Below, piece by piece: positions 3,379 to 45,600 of a stretch of DNA of 64,000 nt (the first letter of the stretch is position 1; the number at the start of each line of letters is the position of its first letter). A program made the position numbers and the translations under genes. The notes under the pieces are model-generated. The model was not told where the DNA came from, did not search any database, and saw only the letters and a program-made list of their open reading frames with translations. This DNA is from Poseidonia sp. (GTDB taxonomy: Archaea > Thermoplasmatota > Poseidoniia > Poseidoniales > Poseidoniaceae), in assembly GCA_965661285.1 (NCBI GenBank), contig CBFIDD010000006.1:1-64000 (forward strand). Reading direction: 5' to 3'.

Positions 3379-5109
3379 TCATTCCTCTTCGCCGCGCAGC
3401 ATGCCAACGACAACGCTCTTGGCTTCAACGACCATCTCTTCGATGCCTTCCATCTCGTCGTCAACGAGCGCTTCGGCGAAGGTTTTGCCCTTGCTGCGGC
3501 CACGTGCAAGCTGACCGATGATGCTCAACGTGGTAATACCAACGAGGATGAGTTTCACGTACGTAGCGTTGTCCTCCCCGCCAACAATGAACACGAGAAG
3601 CATGTAGAGCGACACGATGAAGGTGGTGAGAATCATGACCGGGAATCCAGCCTTGAAAAATTCGTTGAAGGAAATTGGGTAGCCCGCCTCTTCGGACATA
3701 CCAGCCGTGACAACATTCGCCGAAGCGCCGATCAAGGTACCGTTGCCACCCAAACAGGCTCCAAAGGCAAGCGCCCAAATGAGTGGGTCAAGCAGGTAAT
3801 CGCCAAGTTCGTGGGCGATTTGGAGAACGATGGGGATCATGGTCGCCGTGTAGGGAATGTTGTCAATGAAGGCCGAAGCCACAGCCGACACCCACAACAC
3901 GATGAGAATGGCAGCAGCGAGTCGAACGGTTTGGCCGTCGCCGGTATCGCTACCGAAGAATTCGATGGCGGCCATGACGTATTCACCAATGAAGTTGATG
4001 ACGCCCATGTACTGAAGGGAGTGAACCAAAACGAAGAGACCGGCGAAGAATAACAACGTGGTCCATTCAACATGGTGAAGTGGCTCTTCGAGTTCGTGCC
4101 GGTCCGTTGCCAACAGCATGACCACCGCACCCACCAGGGCGATCCAAGAGACAGCGATGTGGGTGATGGGATGAAGGAAGAAATTGAGGATGACCAGGAC
4201 GAGAATGAAGCCAGCGACTTTGAGCATTTTGGGGTCCTTGATGCCGTATTTTGCCTCAAGCTCGGCCACATCACGAATGCGAGAGCCCGAAAACTCCTCC
4301 GCATAGAACCACTTGAGAAGCATGAAGCTCGGGACGATGCACATCAAAATGCCCGGCCCCATTTCGATAATGAAATCGTTGAACGTCACGCCATACTGGC
4401 TCATGTACTCGTATTTTCCATCCTCAGCGGAGGCGATTTTGGCAGGGGAAAGCCCTGAGCCGATCATGATGTTGGGAGGGTCGCCAATCATCGTAGCAGC
4501 GCCGCCGATGTTGGAAAACAGCACTTCGGAAATGAGCAGCGGGATGGGTTTGATGTCGAGCACTTTTGCAAGTTGGATGGTGACCGGTGTGAGCAGGAGC
4601 ATCGTGGTCACGTTATCGAGAAAGGCTGAAAGAACGGCGGTCACCGAACAGAGAATGACGACAAGCGTCCAGATGGAGCCGCCGCTCTTCTTGTAGGAAA
4701 GAACGGCAAAATATTCGAAAACACCCGTGTTGGAAAGAATACCAACCATCACCATCATACCGAGCAGGAGCCCAATCGTCTCCCAGTCGATCATCGTCGT
4801 GACCTCCGCCAGCGAGAGGGTATCACCGGTGTCGTAGTAGTTCAGCGCAAGCATGGCTACAATGCCGCCAACAGCAGCCGCCAGCGTGCGATGGACCGTT
4901 TCAAAGATGATGAGAACATACACGGCGACGAGAATGGCAAGACCGACATACACGGCTTGGGTTTCAAGTCCGTCCTTGATGTGAATCTCAAGGCCAACAC
5001 CACCTCCGCCGCCGGCGCGGGAAGGATTGGCGAACATCATGGCGCCGATGAACATCAAGAGGCCAAACGCAATTTGCCGACTACGGTTGGTGAACAAATG
5101 TGAATTCAT
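3379..5109 (-). CDS. ArsB/NhaD (IT superfamily) anion permease, P-protein/OCA2-like
   Basis: Many TM helices; motifs SAFLDNVTT, NIGGAATMIGDPPN, DNIPYTATMIP, GACLGGNGTLIGASANVV; start taken at MNSHLF to avoid overlap with the upstream gene. Confidence 0.9.
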   Translation of the reverse strand: MNSHLFTNRSRQIAFGLLMFIGAMMFANPSRAGGGGGVGLEIHIKDGLETQAVYVGLAILVAVYVLIIFETVHRTLAAAVGGIVAMLALNYYDTGDTLSLAEVTTMIDWETIGLLLGMMVMVGILSNTGVFEYFAVLSYKKSGGSIWTLVVILCSVTAVLSAFLDNVTTMLLLTPVTIQLAKVLDIKPIPLLISEVLFSNIGGAATMIGDPPNIMIGSGLSPAKIASAEDGKYEYMSQYGVTFNDFIIEMGPGILMCIVPSFMLLKWFYAEEFSGSRIRDVAELEAKYGIKDPKMLKVAGFILVLVILNFFLHPITHIAVSWIALVGAVVMLLATDRHELEEPLHHVEWTTLLFFAGLFVLVHSLQYMGVINFIGEYVMAAIEFFGSDTGDGQTVRLAAAILIVLWVSAVASAFIDNIPYTATMIPIVLQIAHELGDYLLDPLIWALAFGACLGGNGTLIGASANVVTAGMSEEAGYPISFNEFFKAGFPVMILTTFIVSLYMLLVFIVGGEDNATYVKLILVGITTLSIIGQLARGRSKGKTFAEALVDDEMEGIEEMVVEAKSVVVGMLRGEEE

Positions 5110-5170
5110 GGAAAGGCCCCTTGGATTTGGGGGGACGGATACACTCTTTGACCCTTTGCTTGACAAAGGA

Positions 5171-5437
5171 TTACCTGCGCCACAAAACACCGATGTTTCC
5201 TCGTTGCAGAACCAGCGTGGCGTCGGTGTTTTCGGCGATGTAGTTCCACACCTCGCTGCGTTGTTCCCGCTCAAACAATCCTTTGTTGACTTTGACCTTG
5301 ACGAGGGCTCGTGATTGAAGTTGCTGTCGAATTTCCTGAAGCACCGTCTCGCTCAAACCCGCCTTTCCGATGCGAACGCTCGCTCGAAAATCCCGGGACT
5401 TTGCCTGTCGAAGGATGTGAGTCGGTATGGTACTCAT
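5171..5437 (-). CDS. yhbY: YhbY/CRM-domain RNA-binding protein
   Basis: VRIGKAGL..EI..QL....LVKVKV and RG..GVLWR motifs; adjacent to rnp4 as usual in archaea. Confidence 0.88.
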   Translation of the reverse strand: MSTIPTHILRQAKSRDFRASVRIGKAGLSETVLQEIRQQLQSRALVKVKVNKGLFEREQRSEVWNYIAENTDATLVLQRGNIGVLWRR

Positions 5438-5793: not shown

Positions 5794-6420
5794 TCAGTCG
5801 AGCACGGCGAGGAGGTCAACGGTGATTTCATCGATGGCACGGTCGCCGTTCACGCGATGGAAGAGACCGCGTTCTTCGTACCACAACGCCAGCGGAGAGG
5901 TCTGCTCGTGGTACGCACCCAGTCGATTGAGGACCGTGCTTTCGTTGTCATCTGCTCTGCGCTTTTCCTGGTAGTTGCCGCAGGAACACCCCTCGGCGGG
6001 GACGGGATTGAATGTATCGTGGTAAACCGCTCCGCAGTTCGCGCATGTTGAACGCCCGCAGATACGCTCAACGATGCGTTCGTCAGGGACGTCGATGGCC
6101 AGTACGTGGGTGATGGTCGTCAATTCTTGGAGTGCTTCTGCCTGCGGAATCGTTCGAGGAAAACCATCGAACATGACGCCGTTGGCGGCATCCGCCTCCT
6201 GAATCCGGGCCTCAATGAGCGAAAGGATGACGGCATCGGGAACCAACTCGCCTCGGTCCATGTAGCCCTTGGCATCCAATCCAACAGCCGTACCCGCCTT
6301 GACCGCAGCGCGCAACATATCACCGGTGGACACCTGTGGTAGACCGGTATGTTCCATGATTCGGTGCGCTTGGGTACCTTTCCCTGCGCCGGGGGGTCCA
6401 AACAAGACGATGCTGCCCAT
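5794..6420 (-). CDS. adk: Adenylate kinase, bacterial-type with Zn lid
   Basis: GPPGAGKGTQ, STGDMLR, DGFPRT, RADD; Cys-containing lid. Confidence 0.96.
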   Translation of the reverse strand: MGSIVLFGPPGAGKGTQAHRIMEHTGLPQVSTGDMLRAAVKAGTAVGLDAKGYMDRGELVPDAVILSLIEARIQEADAANGVMFDGFPRTIPQAEALQELTTITHVLAIDVPDERIVERICGRSTCANCGAVYHDTFNPVPAEGCSCGNYQEKRRADDNESTVLNRLGAYHEQTSPLALWYEERGLFHRVNGDRAIDEITVDLLAVLD

Positions 6421-6458: not shown

Positions 6459-9400
6459 TCAACCTTGGCGCTTGAGCCACTCATGCCCGTAATGGCGCCA
6501 CTGCTCCATGGTCCACCCTGCGGGCAAGCCTCCGGGTGGAAGGGGAGGTCCGGCTTGTGCAACCGGTGCCGGCGTTGCGGGAGCTGGCTGTGGTGATGTG
6601 GGCATCGGCAGCGGGGGGAGGGCTTTGGACGGAGGCAGGCCAGCGGGAGGCAGACCCTTGGGGACGGCAGCGGAAGGCATACCGGCGGGAGGAAGTCCTG
6701 CGGGAACAGCAGCGGGGAGACTTGGCAAATCCATGGATTGCATGATGGCTTGGGCTATTTCCTCGTCACTTACCTCGCCACTGGTGAGTTCATCCACAGC
6801 TGTACCGAGATCGAGAGCATTGTCCCTTCGCTCACCGAGCATGTCAGGATTGGCATGCGTGTTCGGTGCGACCAAGGTGGTCCCATCGTCTTCGAGTTCG
6901 CCCGATTTCTTCATACGGCGGGCAAGGACAACCCCGCCGAGCAAAAGTGCAGCCACAAGACCTGCACTCACGGCAGGGGGCAGGAGATTGAACAGACCTG
7001 TTGAACCTTCGGCGAACTCCACACTGACCACCTGTTCAAGAGATGAAAGCGACGCTCCATCAGCGGTCAGGTTGAGCAGGAGCCGAGCCGCACCCCGCTC
7101 CACATCATCGGAAGGCATGAGTGTCACCGCCACCTCAAGGGTGGCTCCCACTGCCAGGCCGCTGACCACGGACGGCTCAACGACCACCGACCAATCTTGA
7201 CGCTCAACGTCATTCTTATCCAGAAGGACCGCAGTGAGTTCACCCGCGAGTGGAACATTGCCATCGTTTCGTATCACGAACGTCTCCGTTCGTCCATCGC
7301 TGCGAGAAATGCCCTGCAACAAGCCTTCACCGTCGTTAAGGGAGGTGATGTTTCCAAATGAAGACGGCAAAACGGCGACGGAGACCGATTCGGACGCCTC
7401 AAAAAATCGTCCGTTGTTGGTTGCGTTCACCTGAATGAGAATTTCAAAGGCGTTCTCCGAAACTTCGGATTGTGCTGGTGGCACGAGACCAAACCGGACG
7501 GTTTTCTCCTCACGAGGCTCAAGGTAAACGGTCGGGTTGGCAAAACCCACGGACCACCCATCGGGTGCAAGACCGTGCGTCCACGTCAGTCCAAGGTTTG
7601 TGTTACCGGTGTTTTTCACCACAAATTCACCGTATGAGAAGGCATCGGATACGACGGTGTCAATGCGGCTTCCGGCAGGCGGTGTGAGGGAAATACCCAG
7701 TTCGTCTTTCACGACAAGCGTCGTGATGTTTTGTCGGAAGTTGGAGAGAGAACGCTCTGTTCGGATGGTGAATCCGTTGCTGTCACCCTCCTCAGCCGTG
7801 AGCGGGACACCGAAAATCAATCCTACAACGGTGGTTTCACCTGGCCCGAGTGAAAGTGACACTCGCCTTGAGTCTTGAACGCCATCGTGAGCGACTTGAA
7901 TGGCCCACTGGGGGTTGTCGGGAAGGACCGAGACATCGAGGTCAATACCGATGTTTCCTGTGTTTTCAATCGTCATGTTGAGGTGTACTTGTTCACCGCT
8001 GTCGACAGCGATGTCCGGCGAGAGGTGATTGGGTCCAACTCGGCCGTCGTCGTCTTCCAAATGAACATCAAAGGACTCTTGGGCGAGCACCGTGATGGTC
8101 ACGGTTTCGGTGAAATTCATGGACGGGTCCGTGAGCGAGGTGACGTAGCATGTCACGGTGTCGGTATCACCCGCAGCGGGAACCCCTTCTGCGATCAGAG
8201 GAACGAACACTCGGATGGACATCGGGAGATACTCGAGAATATTGAGCGGTTCAAAATCAAGTTGCGAAGAGTTCGAAGACCCCAGCATGACTTGCCAGCG
8301 TTCCTCGGACTGGCAATCGATGCTGTATTGCGCCGGTGCGTTACCCGTGTTCCTTACCGAGATGGAAAACACCGTTGACTGACCCGGAACGGCTTCAAGG
8401 CCCGACGTACCTGCCGCAACCACTTGCACTTGGTCAAGTTGTTCAACTTCGATGGTGATGCGCTGTGTATGGGCGACCGTTGGCTGATACTGATAGCGAG
8501 CTGTGAGTTCGACCACATAGGTCCCCGCACGCACAAACCGAGGATTGCTCGGGTCGGTGGTCAAATCGGCATCGATGTCTTCAAGTCTGAGATTGATGGA
8601 TTTGTTCGCAGTTTCAGTGCCTTGCGCCGTGAGGGCAAAGGTGGTTGATTCGTCGAACGTTCGGGTCCATAGGTCGGGGCTTGGAAGGAAGAAATCGTCC
8701 CGGCCAGGGACAGGAACCTGCACCATGGTCGCAGAAAGAACAACCGATTGATTCCCGGTTCCCTCGTGGAGCACAGATAGCGGAATGTCGATACCCGAAT
8801 CGTTGCGGACATCGAGGGTCATCATCGCATTGGACGACCGTTCCTCAGCCGTTTCAGGCAGGGTCCCGTCGGCGTTCTCAACGACGACTCGAACACCAAG
8901 GGCCTTCACCTCGACATCTTGCGTCCAGACATTGTTGTCCGTGCCAGAGATGACGTCGTTCATCTCAGCGACCGCATTCCCCGTATCAATCGAGAGCCTC
9001 AGCGTGTGGACACCCGTGGTGGTAAACTGGTGGAAAATAGTGTATGAATCGATAGCTCCAGGAGCGAGGGCCGGTCGGGAAGCAGTAGCCAAGGTGGTTT
9101 GGGCGGTGGTGTCTTCCAGAAGAATATCAAACGGCGCCGTTGTGCTCGTGCCTTGGTTCACCCACGCCAGACGGATTGAAATCAAGTCGTCTTTGAGTGG
9201 ATTTTCTGAAGAGACCAGGATGCTTCCATCGAACACGGCGAGGTCGGGCTGAGGTGTTGGTGTCGCCAGCGCGGTCATGACCAAGGCGAAATCTTGGTCG
9301 GTGCCGCCACGATGAAGCACCTTGACCACCCAATCGCCCGAGCCACTTGGAAGGGTGCCGGGTGCTACGCGTATGCGTTCAACATTGTTCACGGCGTCCG

Positions 9401-11423
9401 CCGTGCCACCGGTGGTGGAATACCCTTGGAAGAAGTCGTTGCCGAGCCACTCATTCCCGTTCGAGTCAACCAAAATGAGGTCGAGGTTGTTGACCAGTCG
9501 TGCCTCGGATTGTGGAGCGTTGGCACTTCCTGCTTCATCGGTCCACGCCAGCGTGAGGTCCAAGCCATGGCTGGGGTCGATGGAAAACGAGTAGAGCAGG
9601 CCGAAGCCCGGTGCGAGGACCTTCCGGTCGTCGAAGAAAGTGTTCAGCGGGGTTGTGTCGTCCATGGGAAGGACGGTGCGTTCCAAATCGATCTCCCCCC
9701 AACCCTCGGCTGCGTTTGGAATATCTGGCGTACCCAAGTCCCGTGCACCGTTGATCATGGCGGCCTTCACCAGTGCACTTGATGGGGAGGAAATACCGGC
9801 TTCCTCACGAATGAATTCACGGGTGAGGCCAGCCACGCCGGAAGCGATGGCTGTCGCCTGTGAAGTCCCACTTAGCGACATGTAGTAGGCATTACCACCG
9901 GCGTGTGTACCCGTTAAGCACGAAGGCCCTGCCGGAGTTTTGGCTTCTTCAGCGAGCCCCGAACAAATACCGACACCCGGAGCGACGAGATCGGGCTTGA
10001 CCCTGCCGTCCAGGCTCGGGCCGAGGGATGAAAAATTGACGACGGCCCCTGCCGCAGGTGTCCCGGGTGCTCCCGTTGTTGAGGCACCAATTCCGATGAC
10101 GTTCTTGGCCGTACCCGGAGACGAAACTTGAGAGGCGCCGGAGGCACCTCGGTCGCCAACCGAGAAGATTGGCGTGAGGTCTTTCCGGTCGTGAACGAAG
10201 GTGTCAACCGAACGAGCATCGGCGGTGTACTGACCGTAGTTTCCATTCAACCCCCAAGCATTGACCGAAATACGAGCGGTCATTTGTTCTGCATCCCTGA
10301 GCATGTCATAGACTGACCCGATGCGGCCGAAGGTTCCCGTTGGGTCGTGTTCTAAAGCGTACATCACAAGGTTGGCAGCTGGAGCGACGCCACGTGCATC
10401 GGCATCCCCCGAACCGTTTCCAAGAACCGATACGGCGATGTGGGTGCCGTGACCGCTGTTCGTGTCGGCAGGCGAGGGGTCGAGACCGAATTGGGTGAAG
10501 GTGCCAGCCACACGACCTGTGAGGTCGGGATGATTTTGGTCCAGACCGGTATCGGCGATAGCGATCATCTCACCCGATCCGTCAAGGGTAAACGTGGCGT
10601 TATTGGCAACGTTCTGCACGCCTGCGATGGACCATGCGAGCGCGTTGTGGACGCGCAATTCAGCGGTTGGTTCGGTCCATAGAACACGGCCATCGAAGGC
10701 GATGTGGTGCACGAGTGAGCGGGCGGACGATGCATCGAAGGTGGCCAAGCACATCCATGCATCGCACGAAGCCTCACGTGCTCCATAATGAACCAAGTCG
10801 GTGGCGAGTTTGGCGTAGCCACCCACACCCAAGTCCGGTGTAGGGACAACAGCGACCGCATCGTATGCGGCGGGTTGGGCGAGCAGAGCGGGGTCCAAAC
10901 GCCACCCGGGCTGGTGATGCCCAACCCAACGAACAGCGTCTTCTTCCTGCAGGTCTGCAAGGCTGAATGAGCTCCCCTCCTCCGAAAGGCGGACCAGCCA
11001 TGCCTCGTCATGCATCACGTCCAGAACCGTCAAATCGTGCTTGGCGACGACAGCCTTCAAGGCCGTTCCGTCAGGTTCATGCAGTTGGAGAATGACCATG
11101 CCGGTGTGTGATGCGTCGTGGTTTCGCAGCAGACTCGCCGGAGCCTCTGGACCTTCGCCAAACAACGGGTCGAAACTTCCCGACGCCAGGTGAATCAAAC
11201 CGGTCGATTTCATCAGCGATGTGGTCACAACGCTCGCCGAAGGCATGGCGTTCCAGAGTGATGCCGCCAGTTCAAGGCGTTCCTGCTCCGTTCTGTCGTC
11301 CGATGGGACCGCTTCCGTTTCCGGTGTTTCCTCGGACGGAGAAGCCGTGGCCGTGATGGCAACAGAAAGCGGTGTTGAAACCATCAGGAAGAGAACGAGC
11401 ATGAGCGAGGCTCGCGAAAGCAT
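6459..11423 (-). CDS. Membrane-anchored S8 (KP-43-like) serine peptidase with CARDB and Ig-like repeats, C-terminal TM and Pro-rich tail
   Basis: Signal peptide; DTG, GHGTH, SGTS triad; RVKPDLVAPG; CARDB (PDLAV..VAEMND..NN); repeated V.NTGN modules; start 11423 or 11429. Confidence 0.92.
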   Translation of the reverse strand: MLSRASLMLVLFLMVSTPLSVAITATASPSEETPETEAVPSDDRTEQERLELAASLWNAMPSASVVTTSLMKSTGLIHLASGSFDPLFGEGPEAPASLLRNHDASHTGMVILQLHEPDGTALKAVVAKHDLTVLDVMHDEAWLVRLSEEGSSFSLADLQEEDAVRWVGHHQPGWRLDPALLAQPAAYDAVAVVPTPDLGVGGYAKLATDLVHYGAREASCDAWMCLATFDASSARSLVHHIAFDGRVLWTEPTAELRVHNALAWSIAGVQNVANNATFTLDGSGEMIAIADTGLDQNHPDLTGRVAGTFTQFGLDPSPADTNSGHGTHIAVSVLGNGSGDADARGVAPAANLVMYALEHDPTGTFGRIGSVYDMLRDAEQMTARISVNAWGLNGNYGQYTADARSVDTFVHDRKDLTPIFSVGDRGASGASQVSSPGTAKNVIGIGASTTGAPGTPAAGAVVNFSSLGPSLDGRVKPDLVAPGVGICSGLAEEAKTPAGPSCLTGTHAGGNAYYMSLSGTSQATAIASGVAGLTREFIREEAGISSPSSALVKAAMINGARDLGTPDIPNAAEGWGEIDLERTVLPMDDTTPLNTFFDDRKVLAPGFGLLYSFSIDPSHGLDLTLAWTDEAGSANAPQSEARLVNNLDLILVDSNGNEWLGNDFFQGYSTTGGTADAVNNVERIRVAPGTLPSGSGDWVVKVLHRGGTDQDFALVMTALATPTPQPDLAVFDGSILVSSENPLKDDLISIRLAWVNQGTSTTAPFDILLEDTTAQTTLATASRPALAPGAIDSYTIFHQFTTTGVHTLRLSIDTGNAVAEMNDVISGTDNNVWTQDVEVKALGVRVVVENADGTLPETAEERSSNAMMTLDVRNDSGIDIPLSVLHEGTGNQSVVLSATMVQVPVPGRDDFFLPSPDLWTRTFDESTTFALTAQGTETANKSINLRLEDIDADLTTDPSNPRFVRAGTYVVELTARYQYQPTVAHTQRITIEVEQLDQVQVVAAGTSGLEAVPGQSTVFSISVRNTGNAPAQYSIDCQSEERWQVMLGSSNSSQLDFEPLNILEYLPMSIRVFVPLIAEGVPAAGDTDTVTCYVTSLTDPSMNFTETVTITVLAQESFDVHLEDDDGRVGPNHLSPDIAVDSGEQVHLNMTIENTGNIGIDLDVSVLPDNPQWAIQVAHDGVQDSRRVSLSLGPGETTVVGLIFGVPLTAEEGDSNGFTIRTERSLSNFRQNITTLVVKDELGISLTPPAGSRIDTVVSDAFSYGEFVVKNTGNTNLGLTWTHGLAPDGWSVGFANPTVYLEPREEKTVRFGLVPPAQSEVSENAFEILIQVNATNNGRFFEASESVSVAVLPSSFGNITSLNDGEGLLQGISRSDGRTETFVIRNDGNVPLAGELTAVLLDKNDVERQDWSVVVEPSVVSGLAVGATLEVAVTLMPSDDVERGAARLLLNLTADGASLSSLEQVVSVEFAEGSTGLFNLLPPAVSAGLVAALLLGGVVLARRMKKSGELEDDGTTLVAPNTHANPDMLGERRDNALDLGTAVDELTSGEVSDEEIAQAIMQSMDLPSLPAAVPAGLPPAGMPSAAVPKGLPPAGLPPSKALPPLPMPTSPQPAPATPAPVAQAGPPLPPGGLPAGWTMEQWRHYGHEWLKRQG

Positions 11424-11490
11424 GAACATCGGACCAGTTCGCCACTTTTGAAGGAACCTCTTTGCTGTGTTGCAAGGGTGGGCGTTGAAG

Positions 11491-12528
11491 TCACAATCCG
11501 TAGTAGGCAGAAATGGCAGCGTCGGTCTTCTCAACAGACACGTTCCAATCGGCCTCCGTCCCCATCAAAGCACGAATGGCATCAACGTTTTCGGGGATGA
11601 CATCGGACTCTTGGTGGATGGCTTGGAAATAATACAGCGTATTACCGTCGAGTTTGACGCCATCTTCCCAAACAAAAATTTCGTGCAAATCACCCCATTT
11701 CCGCCCAATATCCCGGGCGTACTCCATCACCTCGGCCGTGGTGGTGATGTTGGTTTCCCCGCCGTTCATGATGATAATTCGGGGGTTTGAGCGCCAAAGC
11801 TCAAGCACGCTCTCCGTCGTCAAACCATGACCCTCGGGCAGGAAGGCAACGATGGAATGGCAGTGCATCAGGGTGGTTGGAACGGCAACAGCCATGGAAT
11901 TGATGTCAATTTCTGGCTTGACGGTCATCACGTCCGGTCCGTGATGCGAGGGCACCTTCAGGACCGGTTTGATGGCGTTGATGGGTCCCTTTTTGGAGTC
12001 GCCGGGGTCGGCAGCACGTCGAATCATGGTGCACTCGACCTTGAGCGAACCGCAGTGATTGTACAGCGGCACGAGGGTACGAGAGAGTCCGGTGGTGTTG
12101 CATGAGACTACGCGTGTCCCTGGGGCGTTCAGGTTCTCGGCGTGGTTTGCCGAAGACGTGTATGACATCCCGGCCATGTCGTGCTTTTCACCGCCCTGGA
12201 AGATGTACTTCACGCCCGCTGCCACATAGGCTTCTTTGTTGGCAGCGCCGACCTTGCCTGGCGAACAATCAACCACGACATCGGCCACAGCCAACAGGTC
12301 GCTCAAGCCACCGTGGCAGGTGTATCCTGCTGGAGCAAAAGCAGCAATTTTCTCCTTGTCGTTAAACGTACAATAGAGTGGAAATCCTTTGCGAACGGCA
12401 AGATCGCATCCGAACGAAGGGCGTGTTTTTGTCACGCCGACAATCTCCATATCATCCTGCGCATCAACCGCATCTGCGACTCGTTTTCCAATGGTTCCGT
12501 ATCCGTTGATGGCGACTTTGATGGTCAT
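11491..12528 (-). CDS. gap: Archaeal type II glyceraldehyde-3-phosphate dehydrogenase
   Basis: NGYGTIGKRVADAV, VVSCNTTGL, PSHHGPDV, IHQESDVIPENVDAIRA. Confidence 0.97.
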   Translation of the reverse strand: MTIKVAINGYGTIGKRVADAVDAQDDMEIVGVTKTRPSFGCDLAVRKGFPLYCTFNDKEKIAAFAPAGYTCHGGLSDLLAVADVVVDCSPGKVGAANKEAYVAAGVKYIFQGGEKHDMAGMSYTSSANHAENLNAPGTRVVSCNTTGLSRTLVPLYNHCGSLKVECTMIRRAADPGDSKKGPINAIKPVLKVPSHHGPDVMTVKPEIDINSMAVAVPTTLMHCHSIVAFLPEGHGLTTESVLELWRSNPRIIIMNGGETNITTTAEVMEYARDIGRKWGDLHEIFVWEDGVKLDGNTLYYFQAIHQESDVIPENVDAIRALMGTEADWNVSVEKTDAAISAYYGL

Positions 12529-17113: not shown

Positions 17114-17206
17114 GACGTTGCCACATACGTTTTCCTCATGAAGGCACCGACAAGGATGGATTCACGAGAGGGAGTGATTGATAGGGGGGAGTGTTGAGCA
17201 ACCACC

Positions 17207-19618
17207 ATGAGGTGGGCGGTTCTCCTCGCCATGTTTCTTTCACACCTCGCTGTTCCATTCGGCATTGCGGTCGCTGCCGATGTTGGAAGAGAGGATGCAT
17301 TGTTGGAATTCACAGCACCCAGCGAGGTCTACGTCCATCAAAATGAAACCGTCAGCACCTACATCACCGTCCACAACAAAGCTGATGAAAATCAAGCCTT
17401 TACTGTTCAACCCTTCGATGTCCCGGCTGAATTAAGCACGGTTGGATTACCGAAAACCGAATTGCTGGTTCCCAATCATCTCAAACAGATCGCCTTCGGT
17501 ATCCAAACTCAAGATGACACACCGCTGCAGGTGTTCAATGTCTCTTTTTCAATCACGAGTGATTTGGATGATTCCATCAGCGAAACGGTAGAAATGAAGG
17601 TTCATGTTGTACCGCAGTCGAATTTATCCTTTGGCGTGGATGATTTCGCTGCCTTTACCGTTGACGAGTTGGTTCGCACCTCCATCGCCGTAAACCTGAC
17701 CAATAACGCAAGTAATACCGACGATGTGACCTTCAATCTGTACTCCACCTCCGACTGGGAATGGGGATGGGACATGGACAACACCAACGGCACGGAAGCC
17801 TTCATCTCGATGGGTCCTAACACCCTTTCGTATGTGTATCTCTGGGTCGAGGTACCCGCTGTTGTCGACGGTGCCCCGTTGGCCCAAACCGGACCCCGGT
17901 TCACGCTCTCAGCGATTTCAGGCTTGGACAACGCCGTTTCAACCTGGAGTTTTGACCTCTTGATGAACGGAAAGAAAAACGCCTCCATCGATGCGATACA
18001 GGCCTCTGCCGAAGTGGCGCCAAACCAAGATGTTCGAGTGCAGGCCGTCGTGCGAAATGTTGGAAACACCCCCAACACCCTCAACATCACCCTTCAGGGG
18101 CTTCGCCCAACTGGGGAACCTCTTCCGGGTTCAACCGCTGCAGACCGGTTCAACCAAAGCGGCTGGGTTGTTGCATTGTTTGGGGGTTTGGAAGACCTCG
18201 TCCTCGAACCCAACGAATCACGTACGATTGAAATCGGCTTTCAAGCCCCAAACGAGTTTGAGGGTGAGATGCACGTGCAGTTGCAAGTGTATGCCAGTGG
18301 AGCGAAATCCAACACCAAGACGGCAACGACCGTCGCCATCATCAATCGAACATCATCGGGAACACTCACCTATGAAGCCACAGGATGCCAAGCCATCCTC
18401 CCCAACCAAACCTGTGATGTGGCCCTCCAGGTAAGAAACACGGGAAATTCCTACAATTCCTTTGTCCTCCGAGATGGAGGGACAACCGACGGTTTTTCCC
18501 TCAACCTCCCCAGCGAAGCACTCCTGCTCCAACCAAACGAAGTCAAAACATTCCTTCCTGCGACCATCGGAGCGGCTGAAGGAGCGATGGCGTTTACCCT
18601 CGGTGAATCCACCATCGAAGTGTTGGACGACACCGGCTCCGTCGTGGATGCCGTGGTCGTCGCACTCAAGGTCGCACCCGTCATTCAGTGGAATTTCCGA
18701 AATGTTGAGGAGCAGGTGAATGCGAATGGGAGATTGTCCATCGCCATGGAAGTGCGCAATGAAGGAAACGCCGTTGACGGCCTGACGGTGCAACTCCAAT
18801 CCAGTCACGCCGTCGACATGGGATTCATCCCGCCAGACATCGCCATTTACGAAGAGGGCGTTGAGTATCCACGTTCGTTTGATATCAACGACATCCCACT
18901 GAATTCAAATTTCACGATCCGCGCATGGGTCCAACTCCCACAAGATCAAACCAGCAATGGAACCGTCTATGTCAACACCACCATTCGTTCGCGACTCTCC
19001 CCGGAGGTCCCCTTCGTGCACACCAGCACAGGTGACTATCTCGGGGCCGCTTGGCAACCAAATCCAGATGGAGACGAGGGCATTGATTGGGGAGAAATGA
19101 TCGATACGGTCGTCCTCTATGTCAAAGCATGGTGGGGCGTTGTCGCAAGTATCCTCCTTGCGGGCGTCATCATCTACAAGGCCGTGCTTGACCGGGAACG
19201 AAGAATGGAGCATCAAACGACGCTGCCCTATCAAGAGACGAATACCTCTGCCGAAGACTGGATGAGTCAATATCGAGACCAATCGACGGCGGAACCTGAA
19301 CCGGCACCAATCCAACCGACGCAGCAGGTGCCCAAGGAGACTTACCAAGCCATGTTCCGGCACCAACACGGCGCCTCGCAACCCAGTCAACCACCCGTCG
19401 ACAGCAACCTTGTGTCCGCAGCCACCGTCGTCCTTGATGCTCGCACGGAAGAGGTATCAAAGGAAAAGGCAAATTCGCTTCTGGATTCCTTACCAGAAGG
19501 CCCGCAACCCCGGCCGCTACCTGCCAACCAACAACTCGCCAAGATGGACGGCACTCGCGTCCCCCTCCCCGAGTCTGCCTCCAAGGCTAACGAACCGGTC
19601 GACGATCTGGAATTTTGA
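17207..19618 (+). CDS. Membrane-anchored surface protein with repeated Ig-like (COG1470-like) modules
   Basis: Signal peptide; repeated VRN.GN modules; TM near residue 645; acidic Pro/Gln tail. Confidence 0.8.
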   Translation: MRWAVLLAMFLSHLAVPFGIAVAADVGREDALLEFTAPSEVYVHQNETVSTYITVHNKADENQAFTVQPFDVPAELSTVGLPKTELLVPNHLKQIAFGIQTQDDTPLQVFNVSFSITSDLDDSISETVEMKVHVVPQSNLSFGVDDFAAFTVDELVRTSIAVNLTNNASNTDDVTFNLYSTSDWEWGWDMDNTNGTEAFISMGPNTLSYVYLWVEVPAVVDGAPLAQTGPRFTLSAISGLDNAVSTWSFDLLMNGKKNASIDAIQASAEVAPNQDVRVQAVVRNVGNTPNTLNITLQGLRPTGEPLPGSTAADRFNQSGWVVALFGGLEDLVLEPNESRTIEIGFQAPNEFEGEMHVQLQVYASGAKSNTKTATTVAIINRTSSGTLTYEATGCQAILPNQTCDVALQVRNTGNSYNSFVLRDGGTTDGFSLNLPSEALLLQPNEVKTFLPATIGAAEGAMAFTLGESTIEVLDDTGSVVDAVVVALKVAPVIQWNFRNVEEQVNANGRLSIAMEVRNEGNAVDGLTVQLQSSHAVDMGFIPPDIAIYEEGVEYPRSFDINDIPLNSNFTIRAWVQLPQDQTSNGTVYVNTTIRSRLSPEVPFVHTSTGDYLGAAWQPNPDGDEGIDWGEMIDTVVLYVKAWWGVVASILLAGVIIYKAVLDRERRMEHQTTLPYQETNTSAEDWMSQYRDQSTAEPEPAPIQPTQQVPKETYQAMFRHQHGASQPSQPPVDSNLVSAATVVLDARTEEVSKEKANSLLDSLPEGPQPRPLPANQQLAKMDGTRVPLPESASKANEPVDDLEF

Positions 19619-35549: not shown

Positions 35550-35885
35550 ATGGAAGAGGAATTGGTGGTTCAATTCACCCCCGAGACCAATTCCGTCAAA
35601 GAGGGCATTCTCCCGGTGCGAATCGTCAAGGAAATTTGGCGTGAAATCACCTTTGGTGTGGGAACATGGGGGGCTTTGAGACCACTTGTAGCGGCGTTAT
35701 TGGCGGTCGTACCGTTCCTCTTTTTGGGCCAACATTTCAATCGGCAACACCGCCGAGGTTTCGAATGGTCGTTCCTTCAAATCCCACTGGCCTTCACCGT
35801 CCTTTTGTGGATCGGTTTGTACCTTTGGTCCATTTTTGACGCATGGCGGGATGCGGTAGCGGCCTTGGGTCAAGGCCAGAGTTGA
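35550..35885 (+). CDS. Small membrane protein
   Basis: Two to three hydrophobic segments; LGQHFN.Q..RG and WSIFDAW motifs. Confidence 0.72.
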   Translation: MEEELVVQFTPETNSVKEGILPVRIVKEIWREITFGVGTWGALRPLVAALLAVVPFLFLGQHFNRQHRRGFEWSFLQIPLAFTVLLWIGLYLWSIFDAWRDAVAALGQGQS

Positions 35886-36658
35886 TCGCGGACGGGGATG
35901 CTTCCGTCGGCCAACCCAGCCATGTCGTTGAGATCGTCGGCATCGAATTCATTGGGTAATTCACCAAAAATGAAGTTCGAAATATCACCGGATTCTACCG
36001 CCCAGTACATCACGGATTCTTCGTTATTTGAGTGCCCCGGATGTTCATCGTCTTCGTGGTCAACCGGTGATTGGTACACCAAATTCACCAAGCCAAGCAA
36101 ATGACCGACTTCGTGGATGAGGACGCTGTTTTCAACATCTTCAATGGATGGACGGCCAAATGGACCATCGGCTTCATCGATGGAATCACTGAACAGCGCA
36201 ACCGTCGAGGCATCAACGGCAACACCCAGCACCGAATCTGTCTCGTAAGTTCCCGAGGGGAACATGACTTGCCAGTAGAGGGTGGTTCCCTCCCTTGGGG
36301 AATGGTCCTTCGTTGCCCAGCCCTTGTCCCGAACGTCCTGAGCCGACCATGTCCCTTCGTGCTCAAAGGAGACCTCTTCAAACGAGACAGAAATTCCAGA
36401 AGGTTTGTCGCAGACTTGCTCCAAACGGTCAACGAGCATGTCCGTGCTGCTTGAGAACGGCCGATACCCTGGTTCGTGTGTGATTTCAACGACCATCGAG
36501 GTGTACATGCTGCTGCGGAGGCACGCCAAGGTGAGGCCACCGGGAACGCCTTTCTTTTCTGGCAGCAGGGTCAAATTTTCATCGCCTAAACAGCCTGAAA
36601 GTCCACACGCAAGCATCATGCTCACGAGAAGGAAAGCGAGTGGGGCACGCCGTGCCAT
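35870..36658 (-). CDS. Lipoprotein zinc metallopeptidase
   Basis: Lipobox LSGC; HEVGHLLGL; SVMY Met-turn. Confidence 0.85.
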   Translation of the reverse strand: MARRAPLAFLLVSMMLACGLSGCLGDENLTLLPEKKGVPGGLTLACLRSSMYTSMVVEITHEPGYRPFSSSTDMLVDRLEQVCDKPSGISVSFEEVSFEHEGTWSAQDVRDKGWATKDHSPREGTTLYWQVMFPSGTYETDSVLGVAVDASTVALFSDSIDEADGPFGRPSIEDVENSVLIHEVGHLLGLVNLVYQSPVDHEDDEHPGHSNNEESVMYWAVESGDISNFIFGELPNEFDADDLNDMAGLADGSIPVRDQLWP

Positions 36659-36694
36659 GGCTCCTGCTCGCATGATGTCTTTTTGAATCTCTGC

Positions 36695-37149: not shown

Positions 37150-40100
37150 TCACTTCTTCGATAGGGCATCGATGAACTGCCAACCGTAGGAATTCCATTG
37201 TTCCTGAGACCATCCGTCAGGAAGGCCGGTCGGTGGCAGGGGAGCAGGTTGTGAACGGTCGGGGCCGCTGGGTGGAGGTGGGACCTGCGCCGATGGTGCC
37301 GCGGGTACTGGCGCTGCTGGAGCGGGGGGTTGTGCAATGGCAGGCACAGCCTTGCTCGAGTTCATCTCTTCTGCGACCACATCGGTTTGGTCAGCAGCCT
37401 CTTCTTCGGTTTCGGGTGCGAGCATACGACGTCGGAGCACCATAGCGTACATACCGAAGGAGACCGAAGCGAGAGCGATGATAAACAGCGAAACGCTGAA
37501 CACATCGGTGGAGAGTTGTTGTGTGAGGGCTTCACCGTCTCGCACGGTTTCCTCTTTGATGAGAAGTGAATCCACGGTGTGGCGGTCCATTTCCACGCCA
37601 TCAACCAGAACGATCACGCGATAGTCGATGCTTGAGCCAGCCGGTGCATCGGCCACAATCGGGAGAGCGGCCGTAAGAGAAGTACCGGTTGAAGCAGCCA
37701 CCTCAACCGAGGCCACGGTGGACCAGAAGCCTCCGTCCACGAGTTCCTGAAGCGCAAAGGCCACATCGCCGTTACCACCGAGGTTGTCGGTCGTGACAAT
37801 CATCTTCGCTGTTTCACCCACATAGGGGCTTGGAACGTCCCACTGCAGCGTTGTTGAAGCATCTTGCAGGTCAACTCGAGGACCGACCAAAGCCAACGGC
37901 CATGATGAGAAGGGCTCGGCCATGGAATTGGATTGCGTGTCGTAAGGATTGCCCGCTTCATCAGAACCGGAAACCCACACATCAACAGCATAGGAAGGCA
38001 GGAGGGTCGTGGCGCCTGAGTCGGTCAAATCCAGGGAGCCGCTCCAGAAGAATTGCTGACCAAACGGTGTGATGTCGGGCAGCAAAACACTGCCTCGTGA
38101 GATTTCGGCCTCGCCTGCTTTCACCCTGTAATGGAGCACAGCGGGTTCATCAAAGTCAAACCCGTTTTCGTCATTCGTGATGAGAATGACTTCGAGGTTG
38201 TCGGCCTGCCCAATTGAAATCGGTGAACCTTGAGGCACACCGTTCAGGGAGATGCTGTCAATGGTGGGTCGCGAATTGTCAACCGCCAGGCGCACCCGTG
38301 GGGAAAAGGCCGTTTCATCCAAGGCCAAACCGGGCATGTCGTCCATGCTCAAACGAAGGTCAAGTCGACCGGAGCGCACCGCTGGCACAAGCAAGTCAAG
38401 GCTGAACTCACCATCGTCCCGCGTGGAGGTTCGCCAGTTGTTTTCGAAATCCCCAAACACGACATCGAAGGCGCCTGCAGGAGCAGGAGTTTCGTCTTCT
38501 GCAAAGAGAACCCGGCCGGAAACCCGGAGAGCCTGTCCTGCACCGATGATGGTCTCATAATTTTCTGAGTTGTAGTGGTTCACGCTGTTTCGCAACTCAA
38601 TCGCACGTATCTTCCCCGATTGGGTATCAAAACGGAAATCGTTGTCAAGACTCCACCAATCATCGCCGAAGCCTTCCGAAACCTCAAAGCACGGCACGAC
38701 TTCATTTTCGTTGCACGGCATGTCCGTCACCTTGATTCGAGGCAAGAAATGGGATACGCCGTCGGTGTCATAGGCCTCGGGGAACATCCATGTGAGTTGG
38801 AACCTCGCTTGGATGATGACAACCGTATCGTCGCCTTCTTCCAAATCAACCGTTGAGTAGAGATTGGAGACGGCAATGTTGTCAGACCCGGACGTCATGA
38901 CGGCGACCGGGAGCCCGTCTTCGCCTTTGGCGAGGGTGATGAACAAGGACGATTCGTCGTCGTCAAAGTCACCCGCAAGCGCGACTTGGACATATTGGAT
39001 ATCTTGCCAACCGTTCGCATCGCTGAGCTTGATTTGCGCCGTGTAGGGGACACCTGGATGCATGGGTTCGTAATCATCATGTCCGAGAATGGTCGTGTTG
39101 CCAAGGTCAACCTCTGGCTCGAATTCTTGACGGATATGGTAGGTCACCAGGTCAGCGTCCCAATCGGGAAGCACCTCGCCCGGCCGATAACCGCAGGTGA
39201 TGGAAGAGACGGGACAAACGGGCCCGCGCCCCATGGCGATCTCGTTGTTTTGCTCGTCCTCACCGGAGACATAGAACGAAACCCGCTGCTTGTGCAGCAG
39301 CATCGAATCGTCGATGAGCCCCTCAAAGATGTTCAGGCCACCGGCCCGCGTTTCGGGGGAGGTCAAGGTCATGAGTTCGTATTCATCTTCGTTGGGCAAA
39401 CCGTCGAAGTTGTAGTCCGTACATCCGATGGCATCGCTGGCTTTGCACCCAACCCAGTAGTGGAGGTTGAGTTGGCGTGGCGGGTCCACCGAGTCTTGGA
39501 CGGTGACGGAGACGGATTGACCCACGCCGGAGGCTCCAGCATGCCGCTCCTCTCCGTCCATTGGCGTTGCACTCAGCACAAGCGGGGAGTTACCGTCAAG
39601 GATCAATCGAATGGAGTTGTAGTTTGGATTTGTGTAGGTGGAGCCGTTCTCCAAATCGACCGCTTGGACGTAGAAAATCATCCCGCCCGGTTGTGATTCT
39701 ATGGGTGAGGTGAAGGTCATGTTGTAGGCGCCAAAGGCAGGGTTGACTTCCTCGTACAGGACGAGTGGCTCGCCCATCGGGTCCCCGTCAAAGGTCACGT
39801 TTTGACCGATGACGCGCAGTGAGAAACTACCAGCGGGCGGCATGAGTTGGGAGTCCTGGAAGTGGATGGAACCACTGAAACTGAGATTGAACCCACCGCG
39901 AACCCAATCCATAGGGAAGAGTTGTCGGCCTGTTTCTTCCCATACCTGGAGTCCGTCAAGTTGGATATCGTTCTCCACGACGAGCTCCATTTCGGAGGTG
40001 GTCCATTGATTGACGGCAACACCGAGGTCGTCTTCCACGGTGATCACAGCCTCTGCGCTGCTCTCATCGTCCCACGACCAGTTGACTTTCGTCGGCATCC

Positions 40101-42567: not shown

Positions 42568-42631
42568 GGCTGGGACACGCCTTAAGCACCATTTGAACCA
42601 TGCGGTTTGAAGTCGGGACGGCTGGACGGCG

Positions 42632-45600
42632 TCAACTGGTTTGACGGGAATCGTAGCGTATCGGGGATGAATCTCCACGCACCCCGTCTTCTTCATCGTC
42701 GCGCACTTCGAACCAATCGTTCATCCAATCGCCGTCCGTGTCCCAGTTGATGGGACTGCTTCCCTCAGCCAGATGGTCGTCGTCAAAGTCGAGGAGATAC
42801 CAGCCATATTCATGCTCACCCACGCTTCTGACAGGGGGCGTGTTTGGCGAACCCGCATAGTAGATCTCCCATGCATCGGTACGGTTACCGGCCATCAGTA
42901 CGGTATCATCCGAGGCGTCAACGATGAGGAAGTTGGTGTCTTTGTCATCAACGATGTAGCCGTATTGATTATCAGGGCCACCAAATTTGTCCAACTTGAG
43001 GTAGTTCAACACCAGTTCGTTGGGTTGGCCCAACCCGAGGATGGCCGCCCTGAACTGCCAGCCTTCGGTGACCGGCATACCGTCATAGGTTAGCCCGCTC
43101 AAGCGAACGGCGTTCGGAGAAGCGTAGTCACTGGTCGTGATGGCGTAAAATTCCTGGAAATTCGTGTACGACTCGTAGGTACAGCCCGCGCCCGAACAGT
43201 CCCAATTTCCGTCTTGGTCGGGGTCGAGGTTGGCATCGTCCGGGTCAGCCGGGTCAAGCGTGAACCAGGTGAATTCGGTATCCGGTCGAGCAAGTGTACC
43301 TCCTGAACCGTCTTGGGAGAGGGGGAGACAGGAATTCGTATCGGTGTTGCAGGGCCCACCGGTCGCAACATCAATCCAGACAACCCGAATATCAAGATAA
43401 GAACTGAAGTTGTCGTTGCTCTCGTTCCAAGCCATCTTGTACTCGTACCAGTCGGGCAACATATCGCCGTCGCTGTCGTTATCGCTCGGGTTTGACCCGT
43501 ACTTGAAGACCTCCCGACCGTCGGAGTAGTTGTAATCTCTGACATGGGAGACAACCGCCCCGTTCACGGTGGTTGTGATGTAGGTACGACTGTCCTCGTC
43601 GCTATCGTTGAGGTCAGGACGGGTTTGGTTGTCGTACTCCATGAAATTGGTGAACGGAAGGTTGCCGACGCCGTTTTGAACCGCGACACCGGAGGGTGTG
43701 AAGACGCGGTCTTCCCAGGAACCTTGGGTTGCTGGAATGTCGAAACTGGTGCGGTCGTACCATCCATCATGGTCACCATCGTAGTCCACATCCCAAGGGT
43801 TGAGGGGGTTCGCAGCCCAGTGATTTTGTGTGGTGATGTCATCCATGCCGTACGTCGCATAGCAATATTCCCACCCGTCTGGAATGCCGTCGCTGTCCGA
43901 GTCAGGGTGGGTAGGGTCAGCGACACCACGCAGACTTCGATTGAAATTTTCCGCATCGAGTGAATTGATTTTCGCCATTCTGTCAACCGATTCCCGTCCC
44001 TTCTTCACGAAGTCTTGATACAGGGCCTGTTGTGCTTGGAGTGGCGTAAATCCGAGTTCTTCCTGATAGGCAGCCATGGCGTCTTCACCGAAGTCGATGA
44101 TGCCCAGATTCGCAGGAACCGTGTTCCGAGTGAGGAATTTCCCCCATGTTCGAGATTCCCATTCACGAAGATTGCTGAAGGTCTCGTTGGCGTCGATCTC
44201 ACCGTCGCCATTGCAGTCGAAGCTGTCCTGGTCGGAATCCAGATTCACATCCCCATCGATGAGTGGATTGATCGACCATCGGTTTTCGTCAAGGTCCCAC
44301 GATGTGAACCAATACTCAAACCCGTCATACATGCCATCCCCGTCGGTGTCAGCGATGGTAGGGTCGGTCATACCGAGCACGACTTCGATGAAGGCATTGG
44401 GTGGCTCACCTTGCTGCCATGCGTTGAAATCGTTCAGCAAGCGCTTTCCTCTCGTTTCTTTTGAGATGAGGATGTTGAAAACACGTTGAGCTTTTTCCGT
44501 GGGTTGTTGGAAATCACCGTCAACGTGCATCAACGGCGCATCGCTGGGGTGCTCCATACCGTTATCGGGTTGCTCGGAAGCAAGCGCAAACTCTTGGCGG
44601 TCGATCAGACCATCTTCATCCCCGTCAAAGTCGCCATCGCCAGCAACAAGTGGATTCAACGTCCATGTCCCCGCTGTGACATTCCATGAGGTAAACAGGA
44701 GTTCAACGCCGTCCAGCATGCCATCACCGTCCGTGTCCACATTGTTGGGGTCGGCGGTGAACCCGGTAAGGTTGGTTTGGTTCTCCGAGAGGAAATCACC
44801 AAATGAGAGCGTGGTTGAAATGCCTGGCCATTGTTGCAGGGCATAGGCTGTCCCGATGGTGGTGACAAACCACTGGGGAGATGAGCGGTTGGCGTCGGTT
44901 TGGGACAGCAGCGGCGAGATCACGTTGTATTCTTCCCAGTTGGTCATGCCGTCATCGTCGGCGTCTTGCCAGCGGTCGGTTGAATCCAACGGATTGAGGG
45001 TCCACGCATCGTCAAGAAGATTCCATCGAGCAAACCAAATTTCCCACCCGTCTGGCATACCGTCATCATCGGTGTCGGCATTGAGCGGGTCGGAGGCACC
45101 GATGCTGTAGGAGGAAAGCCCCGCTGTCACGGACCCGGAGGCTCGGTCGGCAAACGTGTCATCGGGAACGCCTTGGTCGCTGATGTGGTCAAAGAGTTGC
45201 GTGGTAAATCCTTCAGGCAACGTATCACCGTCGAGGGTTTGATTCCCGTTGAACAAGTCCGAGCGGATGTGATACTCGAGATAGTTGACAAAGGCTTCGT
45301 CCTGTGAGAGAACGCCGTCTCGATTGATGTCATAGCCATCACCGTCGGGGTTTTCAAAGGCATCAGACCCGTTGAGTGGATTGACCCCGACACGCGTGGG
45401 GTCCCACGAGCAGAGGCCTTTGGATTCCCAGCCATCAGGGAGCGTATCGCCGTCAGAATCCACCAAATTAGGGTCGGCGACCGACCAGCCTTCAGCGGCC
45501 TCGGGAGATTCACCGTACAACTCGAACAATTCACCGTTGATGCCCATCAAGCGGACAACGGACCACTGGTATTCGCACAGGTTGGGCAGACCATCTCCGT

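Follow-up and report, generated by a model that had tools for sequence, protein, structure and literature searches.

Two unrelated surface proteins encoded within a 64,000-nucleotide stretch of a Poseidoniales genome (hereafter the window) end in the same short tryptophan-rich peptide, which we refer to as the W-module. The window spans positions 1-64000 of contig C6 of the source genome (G000; 8 contigs, 1.98 Mb, 93% complete), and both carrier genes lie on its minus strand. Carrier 1 is a membrane-anchored S8 (subtilisin-like) protease and carrier 2 a type-I surface protein, and their tails share one order: a transmembrane segment (TM), a basic cluster, a linker that is first acidic and then Pro/Ala-rich, and finally the W-module of about 26 aa, with the consensus PPLPxxGLPxGW[TS]xEQWxxYGxx[WY]L. 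The two tails had been quoted in an earlier note on this DNA, and both quotations agree exactly with the open reading frame (ORF) translations. The interval singled out there, 6459-6720, does hold the stop codon, the module and the proline-rich part of the linker of carrier 1, but not its TM, which lies upstream at 6921-6977. The features of both carriers are as follows, with scores given for a hidden Markov model (HMM) built from nine copies and for a 30-position profile.

6459-11534, minus: carrier 1, membrane-anchored S8 (subtilisin-like) protease, 1691 aa from a TTG (ORF translation, Pfam)
11373-11429, minus: carrier 1, N-terminal signal-like hydrophobic segment (Kyte-Doolittle window, score 1.83)
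9696-10580, minus: carrier 1, Peptidase_S8 catalytic domain, residues 319-613 (PF00082, 143 bits, full-length profile)
6921-6977, minus: carrier 1, single C-terminal TM, 19-residue core, residues 1520-1538 (hydrophobicity window 2.17)
6906-6920, minus: carrier 1, basic cluster RRMKK immediately past the TM (translation)
6552-6905, minus: carrier 1, flexible 118-aa tether, acidic and orthologue-specific in the half next to the TM, Pro/Ala-rich in the half next to the module (translation)
6462-6551, minus: W-module copy 1 (HMM 57 bits; profile 65.9 bits), with its 26-aa core at 6474-6551 followed by 4 variable residues
6459-6461, minus: stop codon of carrier 1
37150-42696, minus: carrier 2, type-I surface protein, 1848 aa (ORF translation)
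37438-37494, minus: carrier 2, C-terminal TM, residues 1735-1753 (hydrophobicity windows)
37426-37437, minus: carrier 2, basic cluster LRRR after the TM (translation)
37249-37425, minus: carrier 2, tether of 59 aa, acidic then Pro/Ala-rich (translation)
37153-37248, minus: W-module copy 2, core 37171-37248 (HMM 52.5 bits; profile 61.5 bits)

Coordinates of the TMs and signal-like segments were obtained by arithmetic from ORF positions and residue numbers, and the likely start of carrier 1 is a Met at about 11429. Carrier 1 matches the Pfam families Peptidase_S8 (E 1.4e-41) and CARDB (E 1e-10). Carrier 2, which also begins with a signal-like hydrophobic segment, returned no significant family when the whole protein was scanned against Pfam. 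A BLASTP comparison of the two carriers aligned the tail alone (E 9e-7, versus E 0.17 for the next segment), and the ectodomains are therefore considered unrelated, as the earlier note had claimed. Copy 2 is the most divergent of the nine copies used to build the HMM, with 47% identity to copy 1.

Copies, conservation and membrane placement

Ten ORFs of the source genome matched a regular expression for the module, and a looser core pattern gave 11 matches in 10 ORFs versus none in each of 20 residue shuffles; the motif is far above chance. The HMM recovered its nine founding ORFs at 52-61 bits, with the next ORF at 15 bits, and thereby extended the motif beyond the pair in which it was first seen. 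All nine strong copies sit within ~10-40 residues of the C-terminus, none of them at a random position in a soluble protein. The ORFs that bear them are 835-1856 aa long; all have a signal-like hydrophobic segment at the N-terminus and a single TM towards the C-terminus, which basic residues directly follow in eight of the nine. Their ectodomains are diverse according to Pfam (S8 with CARDB, PKD, PKD with CARDB, TSP3 repeats, Ig-like, CARDB/NEW3, one weak sub-threshold beta-propeller match and two without any family), in keeping with the proposal that the tag is borne by unrelated hydrolases and adhesin-like proteins.

Alignment of the nine modules revealed 12 invariant positions (P3, L4, P5, G8, L9, P10, G12, W13, Q17, W18, Y21 and G22). 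At ten of these, two to four synonymous codons are used, the other two being Trp, which has a single codon. The use of several codons at invariant residues indicates that selection acts on the protein, and it led us to reject a DNA element or recent gene conversion as the source of the conservation.

A library of 1.84 billion representative proteins yielded 639 clusters at E<=1e-3, of which 270 also passed E<=1e-10. In 127 of the 150 top-ranking representatives, 4-15 aa separate the end of the module from the C-terminus, whereas in 16 the module is followed by 18-36 further residues with an acidic-hydrophobic end (LLDDLDF, DLDLDF and similar); the rest resemble read-through or frameshifted ends. 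The tether was surveyed in 152 records, namely these 150 representatives and the two window proteins. A hydrophobic segment precedes the module in 70 of them, and the 82 records that have none are short: one measures 273 aa and all others are fragments of 39-177 aa. In the 70 TM-bearing records, 31 to 142 aa (median 72) separate the TM from the module's GW, and at least one Lys or Arg is found within 8 residues past the TM in 62. The tether is low in complexity and rich in Pro, Ala and Glu: its TM-proximal half contains 12% Glu and 8% Asp, with a net charge of -13 per 100 aa, and its module-proximal half 19% Pro and 13% Ala. Such a variable tether fits a tethered ligand, as judged from these sequences, better than it would a fixed structural element.

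The closed genome G075 presents the same picture, with all ten modules past a C-terminal TM and an N-terminal hydrophobic segment in nine of the ten ORFs. Since its carriers range from ~375 to 1814 aa, the tag is not restricted to giant proteins. According to the positive-inside rule, a basic cluster after a TM marks the cytoplasmic side; the module, being downstream of both the TM and its basic cluster, is therefore predicted to be cytoplasmic, the same side that the earlier note had assigned to it. A role in export, also considered there, seems unlikely, because the tag would be made last and would stay on the cytoplasmic side.

Distribution, variants and a second tail end

The 30-position profile detected the module in 41 of 41 Poseidoniales genomes, covering three families and 11 genera, at 1-10 copies each. 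Of 301 genomes drawn evenly from the phylum, 64 had the module, corresponding to the source genome, all 41 members of family f1 (Poseidoniaceae) and all 22 members of family f3, versus none of the 237 genomes outside Poseidoniales, including none of eight from the same class; the idea of a lineage-specific tag is thus well supported at the level of the order. Copies per genome number 5-11 in f1, 3 in f2 and 1-7 in f3. A species-genome collection returned at least 612 pattern matches, with 572 confirmed among the matches listed; the titles of the 80 records shown name Poseidoniales, Poseidoniaceae, Poseidonia, Thalassarchaeaceae or an unclassified eury- or Thermoplasmatota archaeon for all but one record. 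That record is labelled Deltaproteobacteria bacterium AH-558-G13 (contig NODE_36, locus L150) and shows a W-module tail followed by a thermosome gene; because the encoded thermosome is 86% identical to that of the source genome, the contig is a Poseidoniales-like one inside a mislabelled single-cell assembly. None of 27 pattern matches in viral contigs was confirmed.

Neither tail belongs to an existing family model. At E<=10, Pfam gave no match to either tail, and NCBIfam gave no family for copy 1 and three chance-level rows (E 0.66-4.5) for copy 2. Motif strings of the W-module, or a Poseidoniales tail motif, were not encountered in the literature searched, which omits ~1.7 million PubMed Central articles and subscription journals. 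The module is order-wide, and undescribed in the libraries and literature searched. The three findings against which the earlier note had staked its proposal, namely a motif confined to two proteins, placed at random in soluble proteins, or matching a characterised domain, were all absent.

The module is also kept across considerable divergence of its carriers. S8 orthologues in genomes of Marine Group IIb (MGIIb) are 1575-1613 aa long and 29-35% identical to carrier 1, and across the two main families the overall identity is ~35%, the module nonetheless being kept. The tails of these orthologues share a conserved segment, EELIPxGSA...AL(D)T...VS..EI. Similarly, an 1814-aa orthologue of carrier 2 bears the module in G075.

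Reduced and lost forms were found as well. A giant protein of the source genome with PA14 and Laminin_G_3 domains (contig C1, 526306-531624; locus L008) carries, past its TM, two tandem mini-copies of the core, [IV]PxGW[ST]xE.[FY]..WL.GP.PxGW[ST]..QW..[YF], which lack both the PPLP arm and the YG. A query with this tail gave a match in every one of 14 other f1 genomes and in none of 16 from f2 and f3. Judging from these tandem mini-copies, the minimal unit seems to be PxGW[ST]xEQWxxY. As for the S8 protease, orthologues in G031, G032 and G035 keep the module, the orthologue in G030 (locus L064) ends just past a PPLP, and that in G028 (locus L068) stops within the proline arm, the same match holding an in-frame TGA. 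The last two truncated tails are either natural losses or assembly errors. Since the module is lost from some orthologues while the carrier remains, it is not essential to each carrier.

A second class of tail end accompanies one of the carriers. The second gene of a tandem carrier pair (contig C1, 207668-211492) encodes a W-module followed by 35 residues ending in LLDDLDF, and 12 nt past its stop codon begins a gene for a 189-aa protein (contig C1, 211504-212073; locus L022, 28-597). The amphipathic peptide at the N-terminus of this protein is invariant; its further features are a Pro-rich linker, an alpha/beta core of ~80 aa and a conserved PPLGWxGPxTPDGExFHDLG stretch. No Pfam family and no sequence in the Protein Data Bank (PDB) matched it, and the SepF profile PF04472 had no match anywhere in the source genome. 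Nevertheless, the best PDB fold matches of its predicted core (pLDDT 81-89) are all SepF structures (3zie, 3zig, 3zii, 6scq and 7al1; TMt 0.61-0.75, with weak E-values of 0.014-0.28), and on this modelled fold the protein is probably the divergent SepF of the order. Among its 328 relatives, the 120 listed are hypothetical or unnamed proteins without a Pfam domain, and every named source among the 120 is Poseidoniales.

The SepF-like gene was also located in five other genomes, each time immediately after a large ORF that encodes a surface protein with an acidic end; only one of these five ORFs has the W-module, which is missing in G039, G037, G027 and G030. The module and the SepF-linked acidic end are therefore separable, and SepF is a poor candidate for the partner of the W-module, given that four of the five SepF-linked giants do without it. 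The acidic DDL[DE]F looks, from its sequence, like a second, separate class of tail-end peptide. Within the window, an 806-aa type-I surface protein (17198-19618, plus strand), whose N-terminus is signal-like and whose TM spans residues 641-659, has a 147-aa cytoplasmic tail that lacks a W-module and ends in the acidic DDLEF (19601-19615). A soluble 311-aa protein on contig C4 has a similar acidic end, DDDLEF.

Predicted fold and comparable systems

The last 60 residues of the S8 protease were modelled with AlphaFold2 from a 79-row alignment, with a mean pLDDT of 77, rising to 83-89 over the last 30 residues. The model contains a single helix, which starts at the Met after GWT and extends to the last residue, and a proline arm without regular secondary structure. 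A structure search with this 60-aa model found no solved chain at Z>=2, and the ESM Atlas returned only unnamed clusters for the last 37 residues (0.79-0.82). We read the module as a short polyproline-type arm (PPLPxxGLPxG) joined to an N-capped amphipathic helix. By the helix-capping rules, as we take them to apply, W-[TS]-x-E-Q-W would form the helix start, with Thr or Ser as N-cap and W13 and W18 as a hydrophobic staple. On our reading of the helical wheel, the invariant W13, Q17, W18, Y21 and G22 occupy one half and the variable positions the other.

Among known shared C-terminal signatures, the closest parallels are the sorting tags PGF-CTERM (archaeosortase), LPXTG (sortase), PEP-CTERM (exosortase) and GlyGly-CTERM (rhombosortase). 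Like PGF-CTERM-type tags, the W-module is a short C-terminal signature that recurs several times per genome on unrelated surface proteins of a single lineage. In those tags, the motif lies outside the cell immediately before the TM and a basic tail, and is cleaved by a dedicated membrane enzyme. In contrast, the W-module lies 31-142 residues past the TM, on the presumably cytoplasmic side, with no sortase-like partner seen; it is neither placed just N-terminal to the TM nor matched by a curated NCBIfam/TIGRFAM model.

A likeness is also offered by peptides that dock on a partner from the end of a variable disordered tether, such as the C-terminal peptide of FtsZ, which docks on SepF, FtsA or ZipA, and the tail of SSB; both are ligands for a folded partner and gather different proteins at one hub. 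The W-module shares the defining layout, a short conserved peptide near the C-terminus on a variable low-complexity tether. It has, however, no sequence similarity to these peptides. For the FtsZ peptide a complex with SepF is given by the title of PDB entry 6scq ('SepF in complex with C-terminal domain of FtsZ'), but the end that accompanies the SepF-like gene is the acidic LLDDLDF type, with or without the W-module. Mimicry of FtsZ was discarded, the C-terminal tails of the three tubulin-family proteins of the source genome resembling neither the module nor the acidic end. Apicomplexan adhesins of the TRAP/MIC2 family, in which an acidic tail with a subterminal Trp couples to the gliding motor, likewise link a modular, adhesive ectodomain through one TM to a disordered, acidic tail with Trp in its end motif. 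They belong, however, to a different domain of life and share no homology with the carriers, so that the comparison is an analogy only, and we know of no actin/myosin-type machinery in Poseidoniales.

Other likenesses could be set aside. With the WW domain (PF00397) the module shares an LPxGW string, as in the first WW strand, and a Pro/Trp-rich flavour. The WW domain, however, is a three-stranded sheet of ~35-40 aa with two Trp 20-22 residues apart, whereas the module is 26 aa long and predicted helical, with Trp 5 and 12 residues apart. The WW domain, the GYF domain and the mycoplasma EAGR box are unsupported by the Pfam scan at E<=10, and so is the first helix of Myb/SANT (W[ST]xEE ... YG..W), whose spacing also differs. 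Readers of the ESCRT type were dismissed on the absence of MIT and Snf7 families from the 93%-complete genome.

A proposed tethered ligand and competing explanations

The reading that we favour, at a probability of roughly 0.45, is that the W-module, displayed on otherwise unrelated type-I surface proteins, serves as a cytoplasmic ligand on a tether, to be bound by a conserved adaptor or scaffold protein that is not a protease. The invariant helix face and the proline arm would be bound by a conserved intracellular or membrane-peripheral protein, one interface thus letting the cell handle 1-11 different surface proteins, and the outcome might be their positioning, clustering, coupling to an internal scaffold, or turnover. 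Several points weigh against such a ligand. To our knowledge Poseidoniales have never been cultured, and the carriers are known here from their DNA sequence. The cytoplasmic side of the module is deduced from hydrophobicity windows and the positive-inside rule. A carrier can keep going without the module, as do the S8 orthologue of G030 and the SepF-linked giants of G039, G037, G027 and G030. No known peptide-binding module gave a lead, and MIT and Snf7 families were not found in the source genome. Finally, the profiling of co-occurring genes proposed in the earlier note was unproductive: an all-against-all BLAST of the ORFs within 8 kb of the nine loci disclosed no recurrent neighbour family, one pair of other large ORFs being the only recurrence.

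Among the products of neighbouring genes, the membrane-bound AAA+ protease LonB is a candidate reader of the module. G039, a complete MGIIb genome with three modules, has the following carriers, each with a downstream gene that is conserved relative to the source genome.

Carrier of 1074 aa in G039: orthologue of the L005 type in the source genome; downstream gene, LonB
Carrier of 1289 aa in G039: orthologue of the L006 type in the source genome; downstream gene, thermosome
Carrier of 1613 aa in G039: orthologue of the S8 protease in the window; downstream gene, adenylate kinase (5794-6420 in the window)

Because these three carriers all match orthologues in the source genome, the S8 protease can be regarded as one of three order-wide core carriers. 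The L005-type core carrier lies directly upstream of lonB on the same strand, with its module at most 1.5 kb away, at 24 of 30 LonB loci (f1 19/19, f2 2/2, f3 3/9). Of the six misses, one is a contig end and five are MGIIb loci with other upstream genes; by coordinates, the adjacency likewise holds in five further f3 genomes (G039, G037, G031, G235 and G035). The module might accordingly be a turnover tag that LonB recognises in order to clear tails, stubs or mis-assembled surface proteins. This synteny, the preservation of the sole module of G030, the only single-module genome, on the LonB-adjacent carrier, the absence of a giant gene upstream of LonB in five genomes outside the order and the preference of Lon proteases for exposed aromatic-rich peptides on unstructured ends all agree with such a role. 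However, other carriers lie as tightly upstream of thermosome, adenylate kinase and the SepF-like gene, the synteny may merely reflect conserved gene order in compact genomes, and upstream genes differ at the five assessable MGIIb loci. Moreover, LonB of Poseidoniales has an N-terminal extension that lacks conservation across the order, leaving no obvious docking site, and the near-invariant Pro and Gly exceed what a degron usually needs. The synteny of this one core carrier is suggestive, not specific, and we consider recognition by LonB unlikely, since other carriers adjoin unrelated housekeeping genes, no neighbour recurs and the extension is unconserved.

Explanations that dispense with a separate protein partner have less in their favour. 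A Trp/Tyr-rich helix might fold back on the inner leaflet as a second anchor or a sensor of curvature or lipids, given that three to four aromatics lie on one helical face and that the summed Wimley-White interfacial energy of the 14-residue helix segment is favourable in all nine copies (-0.6 to -4.4 kcal/mol). But the hydrophobic moment in the nine copies is 0.18-0.32 and the net charge of the helix 0 to -3, with no flanking basic residues, so that neither the high moment nor the cationic or neutral polar face of an amphipathic membrane-binding helix is present. The helix also sits on an acidic tether of 31-142 aa instead of adjoining the TM, and lipid binding would leave the invariant Gln, the Gly and the PPLPxxGLP arm unexplained. 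The invariant Pro, Gly and Gln, the charge and the low moment together argue against simple lipid binding, which we hold to be improbable. We give equally little credence to self-association, whereby modules would bind each other or the Pro-rich tethers of their neighbours and so cluster surface proteins in submembrane patches. Indirectly in its favour, polyproline helices are common ligands of aromatic-rich surfaces, Pro/Ala-rich sequence (19% Pro) adjoins the module in every tail, and a genome may hold up to 11 carriers; yet the proline segments are unconserved in sequence and length, and G030 has a single carrier. Co-folding of two 60-aa tail copies with the 79-row alignment scored 0.00, which is no answer and counts neither way. 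An arrest or pause peptide acting in the ribosome tunnel, and coupling completion of a giant protein to expression of the next gene, is very improbable. Arrest peptides typically contain invariant Trp, Pro and Gly, the module is mostly found 4-15 codons ahead of the stop codon, and housekeeping genes follow several carriers within tens of bases. Nevertheless, the distance to the stop is not fixed, one subfamily having 35-36 residues past the module, the PA14/LamG carrier has two tandem mini-copies, and a TM distance of 31-142 aa provides no fixed geometry for a pulling force.

The tethered ligand can be widened, although doubtfully, to a eukaryote-like 'tail code', in which at least two separable peptides on the ends of disordered cytoplasmic tails, the W-module and the SepF-linked acidic DDL[DE]F, would wire envelope proteins to intracellular machines such as the division ring, a scaffold or a protease. 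If such a code existed, the surface coat would be positioned, partitioned at division and renewed from inside, with the W-module as the general handle and its partner as an undescribed hub protein specific to the order.

In the surface ocean, Poseidoniales (Marine Group II) rank with the most abundant archaea, and the use that they make of proteins and polymers is attributed to their giant surface hydrolases and adhesins. All shared C-terminal tags of prokaryotic surface proteins known to us act outside the membrane. A handle on the inner side of 1-11 proteins per genome would imply an intracellular machine that organises the cell surface, which is a different principle for such tags, although by analogy the docking of a peptide on a disordered tether would itself be nothing new (FtsZ, SSB, eukaryotic receptor tails). 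Being short and well defined, the module provides a simple sequence marker for Poseidoniales surface proteins in metagenomes and makes the question testable, with a synthetic 30-mer usable as bait.

The surroundings of both carriers add minor observations. About 0.5 kb downstream of carrier 2, past a 172-aa ORF without a Pfam family, a 267-aa ORF (35870-36673, minus strand) gave a weak Matrixin (M10) profile match over the zinc-binding stretch only (E 0.004, below the cut-off). Downstream of the S8 protease gene, on the same strand, lie the genes for adenylate kinase (5794-6420, minus) and a CitMHS-family transporter (3379-5274, minus), and the protease-adk gene order is kept in the MGIIb genome G039.

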